A stretch of 64,000 bases of DNA, from the sequence record MT782071.1, one strand, 5' to 3'. Position numbers and translations under genes: made by a program. The stretch is from Escherichia phage JN02. A model generated the notes under the pieces. It was not told where the DNA came from, did no database searches, and was given only the letters and a program-made list of their open reading frames with translations. This document shows, one piece after another, positions 37,726 to 38,520 of this stretch. Each line of letters begins with the position of its first letter. The first letter of the stretch is position 1.

Positions 37726-37923
37726 TTAGCAAGAATAACTAGATGATACCCAGCCTTGAACAGTGATACTATTGTTGGATAATGATATCGCGTTCTGGAG
37801 ATTCAGACCTGCGTTATCTTCAATCCATAATGTAACTTCTTCGCGTTCTTCTGTTGCAATTTGGAACAGGTTTTCCAGGGCAGCTACTGCCGTACGTACA
37901 GCACAATCTAATTCACGAGACAT
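37726..37923 (-). CDS. Small protein, C-terminal ...SSxxC family (65 aa)
   Basis: Ends GWVSSSYSC; first of three tandem paralogs. Confidence 0.6.
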   Translation of the reverse strand: MSRELDCAVRTAVAALENLFQIATEEREEVTLWIEDNAGLNLQNAISLSNNSITVQGWVSSSYSC

Positions 37924-37932
37924 ATGATTTCC

Positions 37933-38205
37933 TTAGCAAGTGTGAGAAGATGCAATCCAACCACCAGTTTCGAGGCTCAGGTTGTAGTCGTATTGGTAAA
38001 CGTCGGCCCATTCAGCATAGCCGTTTTTTGTACAACGTTCAAGATCGGCTTTAAGCTGTCCGGGTGAATGATAAGTTCCACCCATACCATAAGCTGGATA
38101 CAAGTCGAATGTTGTGTTTTGTTTATCAGCGATTTCTTTGGCAGCCTCAATAGCTGCATAGATTTTTGCTACAGCTTCAGCCAGTTCGGTTTGTTCTTTA
38201 GACAT
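37933..38205 (-). CDS. Small protein, C-terminal ...SSxxC family (90 aa)
   Basis: Ends GWIASSHTC; shares a helical N-terminal region and YGMGGTYHSPG core with the next ORF. Confidence 0.6.
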   Translation of the reverse strand: MSKEQTELAEAVAKIYAAIEAAKEIADKQNTTFDLYPAYGMGGTYHSPGQLKADLERCTKNGYAEWADVYQYDYNLSLETGGWIASSHTC

Positions 38206-38214
38206 AATGATTCC

Positions 38215-38520
38215 TTAGCACAAAGCAGAAGACGAAACCCAAGCACCTTCAGTAATAACGTAACCATTACCTTCACGCTTAACATCGCCACCATTATTTT
38301 CAATTTCATTTTTCATCCACTGGGATACGATTTCACCCTTAGGATAATAAGTACGACCGCTACCATAATCACCTACAGAAAATGATACGGCATATTGGTC
38401 TGCGATCTTTGTTGCTTCTTCTTCGATACGTTCAGCTTGATTCAGAAGTTTATAAATTGCATCTGAAGCGGATTTGGCATCGTTAAACTCTGGTACTTTA
38501 ATTTCAATAATCTTACTCAT
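38215..38520 (-). CDS. Small protein, C-terminal ...SSxxC family (101 aa)
   Basis: Ends AWVSSSALC; DYGSGRTYYPKG core. Confidence 0.6.
   Translation of the reverse strand: MSKIIEIKVPEFNDAKSASDAIYKLLNQAERIEEEATKIADQYAVSFSVGDYGSGRTYYPKGEIVSQWMKNEIENNGGDVKREGNGYVITEGAWVSSSALC

Follow-up and report, generated by a model that had tools for sequence, protein, structure and literature searches.

Nucleotidyltransferases with the Pol-beta fold act on hydroxyl acceptors. The described systems closest to the one analyzed here are the MenT/AbiEii (DUF1814) toxins with their MenA antitoxins, in particular MenAT1 of Mycobacterium tuberculosis, and the nucleotidyltransferases ANT(2'')-Ia and LnuA. In the type VII toxin-antitoxin system MntA-HepT, which serves here as a working analogy only, a minimal Pol-beta-fold nucleotidyltransferase reportedly adenylylates the adjacently encoded partner; HepT is a HEPN RNase that is modified on Tyr. 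Nucleotidyltransferases of the NrdC.11 type, which are encoded by phages, produce cyclic dinucleotides that serve as competitors (Ho et al. 2022, bioRxiv 10.1101/2022.06.09.495361). Here we analyze a locus within a stretch of 64,000 nucleotides of Escherichia phage JN02 (MT782071.1; the whole stretch is referred to as the window), in which three small genes, denoted A, B, and C, encode proteins with a common Ser- and Cys-containing C-terminus (hereafter, the tail) and lie upstream of a gene for a predicted nucleotidyltransferase. Comparison of gene neighborhoods indicates that the tail genes and the nucleotidyltransferase gene make up a two-component module.

Tail genes and the adjacent nucleotidyltransferase gene

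The components of the module in the window are the following:

38215-38520, minus strand: protein A, 101 aa, ortholog of RB69ORF139c (open reading frame (ORF) translation; phrog_899, 1.8e-22), with an N-terminal helix, a GDYGSGRTYYP loop, and C-terminal WVSSSALC
38341-38373, minus strand: Gly-rich loop of A, GDYGSGRTYYP (translation)
38218-38241, minus strand: tail of A, WVSSSALC, followed by the stop codon (translation)
37933-38205, minus strand: protein B, 90 aa, ortholog of RB69ORF137c (ORF translation; phrog_899, 1.9e-18), with a helix, an AYGMGGTYHSP loop, and C-terminal WIASSHTC
37936-37959, minus strand: codons of the tail of B, WIASSHTC (translation)
37726-37923, minus strand: protein C, 65 aa, ortholog of RB69ORF136c (ORF translation; phrog_4882, 1.7e-36)
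37729-37752, minus strand: codons of the tail of C, WVSSSYSC (translation)
36439-37395, minus strand: the partner enzyme, 318 aa, with a DUF7277 nucleotidyltransferase head and a DUF7275 helical domain

An original prediction, made from the DNA letters alone, had pointed out the three adjacent minus-strand ORFs of 65, 90, and 101 aa and their similar ends, and both the coordinates and the translations proved exact. It overlooked the most informative fact about the locus, the downstream nucleotidyltransferase gene. All three proteins fit the C-terminal pattern W-x-x-S-S-(x-x)-C with Cys as the last residue. The six frames of the window contain 165 ORFs with 60 aa or more; only four of them end in Cys, and three of these are A, B, and C. 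The three tails are encoded by differing synonymous codons (TCG/GCA/TCA, TCT/AGT, GTT/ATT/GTA), which implies selection at the protein level. The tail shared by A, B, and C is not due to chance.

In every one of the loci first fetched (Mosigvirus, Dhakavirus JS98, Marfavirus, Aeromonas phage 31, Otagovirus phiPsa381 of Pseudomonas, and Phapecoctavirus phiWec188), a gene encoding a DUF7277+DUF7275 protein of 300-326 aa is located shortly downstream of the tail genes, on the same strand. For an enzyme-first sample, 80 viral contigs were fetched by the enzyme alone and scanned for ORFs with the strict tail ending. This pattern was detected in 158 of the 4713 ORFs on the strand of the enzyme gene versus 4 of the 6178 on the opposite strand, and these four are also real family members. 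The majority of the loci (68 of 80) contain 1-5 tail copies, nearly all 0-2.8 kb upstream of the enzyme gene (median 895 nt); short-form tails at four more loci raise the number of loci with tail genes to at least 72, and at two further loci the upstream sequence is missing from the contig. When diverse tail proteins were used as the starting point, DUF7277/DUF7275 was found less than about 1 kb downstream on the same strand in all 8 look-ups. Clustering of the same-strand neighbors showed that only the enzyme and tail families are widely conserved across the 80 neighborhoods, with the next-best family present in 25, and no third conserved component of the module was detected among them. Neither natural fusions of tail proteins with the enzyme nor tail-like motifs within the enzyme were found.

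The enzyme scores 97.1 bits against DUF7277 and 265 bits against DUF7275 (gathering cut-off 27). It is far more conserved than the tail proteins, with 47% identity between the T4-like and the Otagovirus/Phapecoctavirus sequences and with blocks of extreme conservation in DUF7275, e.g. KVCTSITSGWFREYAWEN. Its homologs form 2,219 clusters at E<=1e-5 and are encoded in 733 of 50,697 deposited phage genomes. The residues G6 S7, D25-x-D27, and E69 are unchanged across 49 homologs and, by sequence, correspond to the Pol-beta nucleotidyltransferase signature with an intact triad; the defining features of this superfamily, namely hG[GS], [DE]h[DE]h, a third carboxylate on a strand, and the fold itself, are all present in the enzyme. 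The structures closest to its AlphaFold2 model (predicted local distance difference test score, pLDDT, 91.7) are the tRNA-nucleotidyltransferase toxins MenT1, MenT3, and MenT4 and ANT(2'')/LnuA, and the model shares the structure of the MenT/AbiEii catalytic core. The DUF1814 sequence model does not recognize the enzyme, for which Pfam at E<=1 returns only DUF7275 and DUF7277, and no match was obtained in PADLOC or NCBIfam.

Several variants of the enzyme locus were observed. On Acinetobacter phage contig L066 (5368-6630), the enzyme frame extends without a stop over about 100 residues upstream of the IGS motif, and the resulting ORF of 411-420 aa may include an N-terminal extension or an in-frame upstream gene. 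Enterobacter phage CC31 (L025) encodes the enzyme with no tail gene within 6 kb upstream; the ORF directly before the enzyme gene (5748-5987) ends in QVCYSSSTF, which may be a decayed tail. In phages of Gordonia, Mycobacterium, Streptomyces, and Vibrio (VH7D), the enzyme gene is flanked instead by 1-3 tandem small paralogs (L091 4887-5797, L093 4609-5701, L090 5648-5959, L092 3360-3656) that share the motif GW[YW]xS[YF]xGGxYDGPTxEV...TITV[WFY] and have no Pfam matches. These paralogs may represent an alternative partner family.

Tail family, protein bodies and genomic setting

Genes similar to A, B, and C were detected by tblastn in 483, 286, and 251 deposited phage genomes, respectively. A profile built from 37 diverse members retrieved 114 proteins from a collection of 5.8 billion proteins, all of them named 'hypothetical', and an exhaustive HMMER search over 1.84 billion cluster representatives, with the tail family counted at 50% identity, yielded 965 representatives at E<=1e-3 and 437 at E<=1e-10. 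Outside the T4-like genomes, the family is represented in Otagovirus, Phapecoctavirus, Lazarusvirus, and jumbo-phage contigs. Taken together, these sequences appear to constitute a large, phage-specific set of small acidic proteins.

Homologs were inspected for loss of the tail, and the loss proved rare. Cys is the exact last residue in 111 of the 115 proteins collected in word-indexed searches; of the other four, two are frameshifted or truncated (one of these is the deposited RB69 ORF139c), one ends in NDCW, and one is an outlier. Among the new HMMER matches listed, 138 of 141 terminate in Cys, and these 138 proteins have W at position -8 and S at position -5 without exception and S at position -4 in all but one (137/138). 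An alignment of 374 sequences has the consensus EAExIADExGxxF....YGMGGTYxP....GxWxSSSxxC, with tail columns at 100% for W, 100% for S(-5), 97% for S(-4), and 100% for C. Second to the tail in conservation within the family is the Gly-rich core noted in the original prediction (Y 90%, G 94%, G 94%, Y 78%). The bodies average 18-28% column identity, against 97-100% for the W, S, and S of the tail. A shorter tail variant, W-x-x-S-S-C-COOH, also occurs, and the terminal Cys is the sole Cys in 63% of the representatives.

In rare homologs, 1-3 residues follow the Cys (CW, CS, CN, CNGY, CGYL). Such extended copies include two ORFs at L087 (5195-5398 and 5707-5979, ending in CNGY and CGYL), proteins of L038, L043, and L060 that end in WISSSICW, and P0258 and P0283 (CS, CN). 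The Cys carboxylate may be dispensable, or else these copies may be trimmed or inactive.

The description of A, B, and C as a paralogous triplet stands for A and B, which are homologous (BLASTP E=4e-6) and belong to the same phrog_899; it does not extend to C, for which the hhalign alignment with the A/B profile is limited to the final 14 residues (probability 92%). Thus, at the sequence level, only A and B qualify as demonstrable paralogs. Both A and B carry a helix ending in A-E-x-I-A-D-E-x-G-x-x-F, followed by a Y-G-x-G-G-x-Y loop, whereas C has the helix but no such loop, and its profile similarity is confined to the tail. In the AlphaFold2 model of A (mean pLDDT 91.2), the N-terminal helix that had been proposed for the two longer proteins spans residues 15-43 (mean pLDDT 91), W94-S96 belong to a strand (93-96), and residues 97-100 form a short helix. 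This fold has no match among solved structures, and neither the HEPN motif R-x4-6-H nor any match in Pfam was found in the small proteins.

An A/B profile from which the tail had been removed recognizes 95 of 160 unique tail-bearing ORFs; the remaining 65 fall into at least seven further body groups, for at least eight groups in all. The C, D, and E types and the types of 139-159 aa lack the Gly-rich loop but keep the tail, and one type of about 75 aa has the motif both internally (DW[LN][NS]SSCYGE) and at its terminus. Since the tail is recognizable on bodies beyond the reach of the A/B profile, it behaves as a modular tag and is the sole universally conserved element. Most body types have a helix followed by an 'A-x-x-x-G-h-x-F' strand, and distant common ancestry of the bodies is possible. 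Across Mosigvirus, Dhakavirus, and Marfavirus, every one of the types A, B, C, D, and E is kept as an orthologous set. Phage JS98 (NC_010105.1, L003) has five tail genes rather than three: the additional ones are an unannotated 72-aa ORF ending in FWFSSSMSC, in the gap between gp126 and gp127 (2784-3002), and gp126 itself (2549-2776), which contains the motif twice, as internal DWLNSSCYGE and terminal WYPSSC. The window lacks both of these extra types.

The region is 97-99% identical to the corresponding regions of HX01, GADS24, and other RB69-like T4-type phages (Mosigvirus), and A, B, and C are positioned between the e.3/e.4/e.5 genes and the e.2-side genes. Other features of the locus are the following:

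38580-38608, minus strand: promoter-like site about 60 bp upstream of A, within e.3 (TTTACG-17-TATAAT, 10/12 matches)
37683-37710: perfect hairpin with a 10-bp stem between C and the 79-aa ORF, annotated 'terminator' in OL960576.1 (97.5% identical)
37424-37663, minus strand: 79-aa ORF between C and the enzyme gene, ortholog of RB69ORF135c (phrog_3723, 'unknown function')

The site homologous to 38580-38608 (regulatory feature at L001 6181-6204) is annotated in OL960576.1 as a T4-type middle promoter. The hairpin is followed by no T run on the minus strand and is overlapped by a sigma-70-like promoter match (TTTACA-17-TATAGT plus TG, 37720->37692, minus strand). The 79-aa ORF is lineage-specific, falls outside the set of widely conserved neighbor families in the 80 neighborhoods, and is probably not a component of the module.

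Like phrog_3723, phrog_899 and phrog_4882 are labeled 'unknown function' in PHROG. Searches of A, B, C, the 79-aa ORF, and the enzyme against Pfam, NCBIfam, PADLOC, and Protein Data Bank sequences gave significant matches only to DUF7275 and DUF7277; the sub-threshold noise consisted of Peptidase_S78_2, E217_Gp32, PsaB, HisJ, and Cas8b. Evidently wrong product names ('tail completion protein', 'major capsid protein', 'prohead assembly scaffold protein', 'CAZy families GH13 protein') are attached to small ORFs or the enzyme in NC_018855.1 (HX01), MZ571829.1 (VAC36), OR842557.1, and PP693301.1 and to protein P0121. The 'sulfurtransferase' label on e.4 of phage JK42 (MK962756.1) has no Pfam support and was rejected.

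The RB69 ORF139c deposited in the database has 71 aa, is identical to A through residue 68, and then ends in QWYEK, without the tail. This short form is due either to a frameshift or to an error in sequencing, and RB69 would thereby offer a natural comparator that lacks A. The fourth Cys-ending ORF of the window (47376-47579, plus strand) ends in CFSNSSRNC; its product is hydrophobic, lacks W-x-x-S-S, and is unrelated to the tail family.

A minority of the module loci lie beside NAD+/ADP-ribose genes (sirtuin at 8/80, NAMPT/NAPRT at 4/80, Macro at 4/80). These neighbors, which include a phosphoribosyl-pyrophosphate-synthetase-like gene with NAPRTase, NAMPT, a Macro domain, a sirtuin, and a putative ADP-ribosyltransferase, map to L102 1428-4008, L094 1-1479 and 6388-6861, L007 7036-7210, L092 6556-7317, and L088 5183-5497. 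They are suggestive of an accessory or anti-defense island and nothing more; NAD+/ADP-ribose metabolism as a theme of the neighborhood was rejected because only 4-8 of the 80 loci show it.

Possible functions of the tail

We tentatively favor, while giving it somewhat less than an even chance, the possibility that the tail is presented to the acceptor site of the enzyme and nucleotidylylated. This preference comes from the hydroxyl acceptors of Pol-beta enzymes, the presence of the tail on unrelated bodies, and the retention of divergent paralogs across genera. The tail would be the handle by which all members of the family, regardless of body, engage the enzyme. It would enter the acceptor-substrate site, which holds the tRNA 3' end in MenT and the antibiotic hydroxyl in ANT/Lnu, and one invariant Ser hydroxyl or, less likely, the Cys thiol would receive a nucleoside monophosphate. 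The outcome would be 1-5 nucleotide-tagged small proteins per phage, with differing bodies; the use of several precursors by one modifying enzyme is a common pattern. Given the accessory region and the promoter-like site that lies upstream of A at a distance of about 60 bp, whose counterpart in a near-identical phage bears the annotation of a T4-type middle promoter, our guess is that the module probably has a role in host takeover or counter-defense. An unlikely elaboration is that the tail is an encoded acceptor tag on which the MenT-like enzyme builds a protein-nucleotide or a short protein-primed oligonucleotide conjugate, so that a diversifying set of small proteins would become nucleotide-bearing decoys or inhibitors that act against host tRNA-targeting toxins or nucleotide-sensing immunity.

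Several observations weigh against nucleotidylylation of the tail. In the AlphaFold2 model, the tail is ordered, with no free flexible arm. The enzyme homologs of actinophages and some Vibrio phages have no Cys-tailed neighbor, so that the enzyme is evidently able to work without this tag, and the homologs extended past the Cys indicate, at the level of sequence, that a free Cys carboxylate is not absolutely required. Furthermore, the closest structural relatives, MenT1, MenT3, and MenT4, act on tRNA, not on proteins, and MenT1 is inhibited, without modification, by a small helical protein encoded upstream (PMC10435456). These structural neighbors and the MenA1 precedent, together with the RNA-repair or tRNA genes that adjoin distant enzyme homologs, favor an alternative that we consider possible but rather doubtful, namely that the small acidic proteins bind the enzyme non-covalently by way of the helix and the tail, with the tail plugging the acceptor channel, and inhibit it or direct it to different targets while remaining unmodified, the substrate being tRNA or another RNA. 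The retention of each paralog type across genera suggests that every body does a job of its own, more in keeping with substrates or effectors than with redundant inhibitors.

The tail and the Gly-rich loop could also form a functional site of the small protein itself, such as a metal site, a reactive monothiol, or a sponge-like pocket that binds a nucleotide or some other ligand; in that case the genes would be linked through a shared pathway, with the enzyme, for example, making or altering the ligand, and no direct contact between tail and enzyme. The residues involved (Y-G-x-G-G-x-Y, W, S-S, C) belong to types known for phosphate binding and base stacking, AlphaFold2 packs the tail onto the sheet with high confidence, and most representatives have no Cys other than the terminal one. 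However, the body types without the Gly-rich loop keep the tail, which therefore works without the loop, and a binding pocket needs no strictly terminal position; we regard this explanation as improbable. Tandem precursors beside one enzyme are typical of clusters for peptides that are made on ribosomes and then modified (RiPPs), and a C-terminal S-x-x-C resembles thioether-forming cores. The body might accordingly be a leader and S-S-x-x-C a core that is dehydrated and cyclized (to a lanthionine or AviCys-like thioether) or cleaved, with the nucleotidyltransferase activating Ser for elimination. Such maturation is very improbable given that the 80 neighborhoods show no conserved dehydratase, cyclase, LanD-type decarboxylase, protease, or exporter, that the short form W-x-x-S-S-C alters the ring spacing, that a folded state with an ordered tail is predicted for the proteins, and that these are genes of lytic phages in an accessory region with the promoter-like site upstream.

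In other systems, lipids are attached to Cys residues at or near a terminus, and lipid attachment was, along with processing, ligation, and metal attachment, among the original suggestions for this tail. The CaaX type does not fit, because it calls for Cys at position -4 whereas the Cys here is the last residue in nearly all homologs, and no transferase or export gene co-occurs in the 80 neighborhoods, the enzyme that does so being a nucleotidyltransferase. Thus, a signal for lipidation, membrane anchoring, export, or capsid packaging that is read by the host or by other phage machinery is extremely unlikely. Even less plausible is that the tail merely caps the fold and that the linkage to the enzyme is inherited synteny. 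In the AlphaFold2 model, W is indeed part of a strand, and S-S opens the short helix; against this explanation, the linkage holds across Straboviridae, Otagovirus, Phapecoctavirus, Lazarusvirus, and jumbo-phage contigs that have no other common neighbor, and the same tail is found on bodies without detectable similarity.

Comparison with known systems

Among known antitoxins, carrier proteins, RiPP precursors, and lipidation signals, none matches the small proteins. Literature searches on the module (DUF names, RB69 ORFs, C-terminal Cys with a nucleotidyltransferase, nucleotidylylation, and phage RiPPs) found no paper. Strictly C-terminal reactive residues are known from HypE (Cys), LysW (Glu), ThiS/MoaD (Gly-Gly), and MftA (Val-Tyr), where likewise a partner enzyme receives a small protein whose extreme C-terminus is conserved, and we treat these as a lead only. 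To our knowledge, none of them combines a W-x-x-S-S-(x-x)-C tail with a Pol-beta nucleotidyltransferase or forms a multi-copy phage family. The C-terminal Gly-Gly and the beta-grasp fold of ubiquitin-like/ThiS/MoaD carriers are absent from the small proteins, and the co-located dehydratase/cyclase/LanD and protease/exporter genes that accompany lanthipeptide/AviCys precursors are absent from the 80 neighborhoods.

The NrdC.11-type nucleotidyltransferases resemble the enzyme in being phage-encoded and MNT-like, in their SDWD catalytic motif, and in their location in accessory or anti-defense regions; no Cys-tailed partners are reported for them in Ho et al. 2022. Their signature is GS-x-AY[GAN]T-x4-SDxD, followed about 60 residues on by NP-x-h2[DE] (bioRxiv 10.1101/2022.06.09.495361). 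Identity of the enzyme with a NrdC.11-type cyclic dinucleotide synthase was rejected, as its GS and SDWD are 16 residues apart and NP-x-h2[DE] was not observed. In Acinetobacter phage AM101, the enzyme of Table S1 is YP_009889759.1 (343 aa), whereas the homolog of the enzyme described here is YP_009889693.1 (317 aa).

The module is common; its carriers are large lytic phages from several unrelated groups that infect Enterobacteria, Aeromonas, Pseudomonas, and Acinetobacter, among them T4-like and rV5-like phages of the therapeutic type, and every member is annotated as 'hypothetical' or wrongly. An invariant terminal W/S-S/C on fast-evolving bodies, tied to one conserved nucleotidyltransferase, is a clear experimental target, and whether the small proteins are modified by the enzyme or inhibit or direct it, hundreds of phage genomes now have a working hypothesis for at least four of their genes each. 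A role of the small proteins in inhibiting or directing the enzyme would make this the first MenAT-like system with multiple partners to be carried by phages; nucleotidylylation of the tail would mean a new protein tag as well as a new activity in the MenT/ANT branch; and acceptor-tag conjugates, if they are built on it, would be a new class of enzyme-installed protein tags in viruses.

Compared with the described systems, the phage enzyme is like MenT in fold but differs from the MenT/AbiEii toxins in lying outside the DUF1814 sequence model, and the small proteins have neither sequence nor structural similarity to the antitoxin MenA1. ANT(2'')-Ia and LnuA, whose folds are akin to that of the phage enzyme, are proteins of 158-175 aa that act on small-molecule substrates and have no protein partner; the phage enzyme adds the conserved DUF7275 (KVCTSITSGWFREYAWEN). 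The partners in the phage module differ from HepT in having a new fold with a Ser/Cys tail. The module is thus best described as a nucleotidyltransferase with small-protein partners and, if the tail is indeed a tag, the enzyme-linked C-terminal Cys tag would be categorically new.

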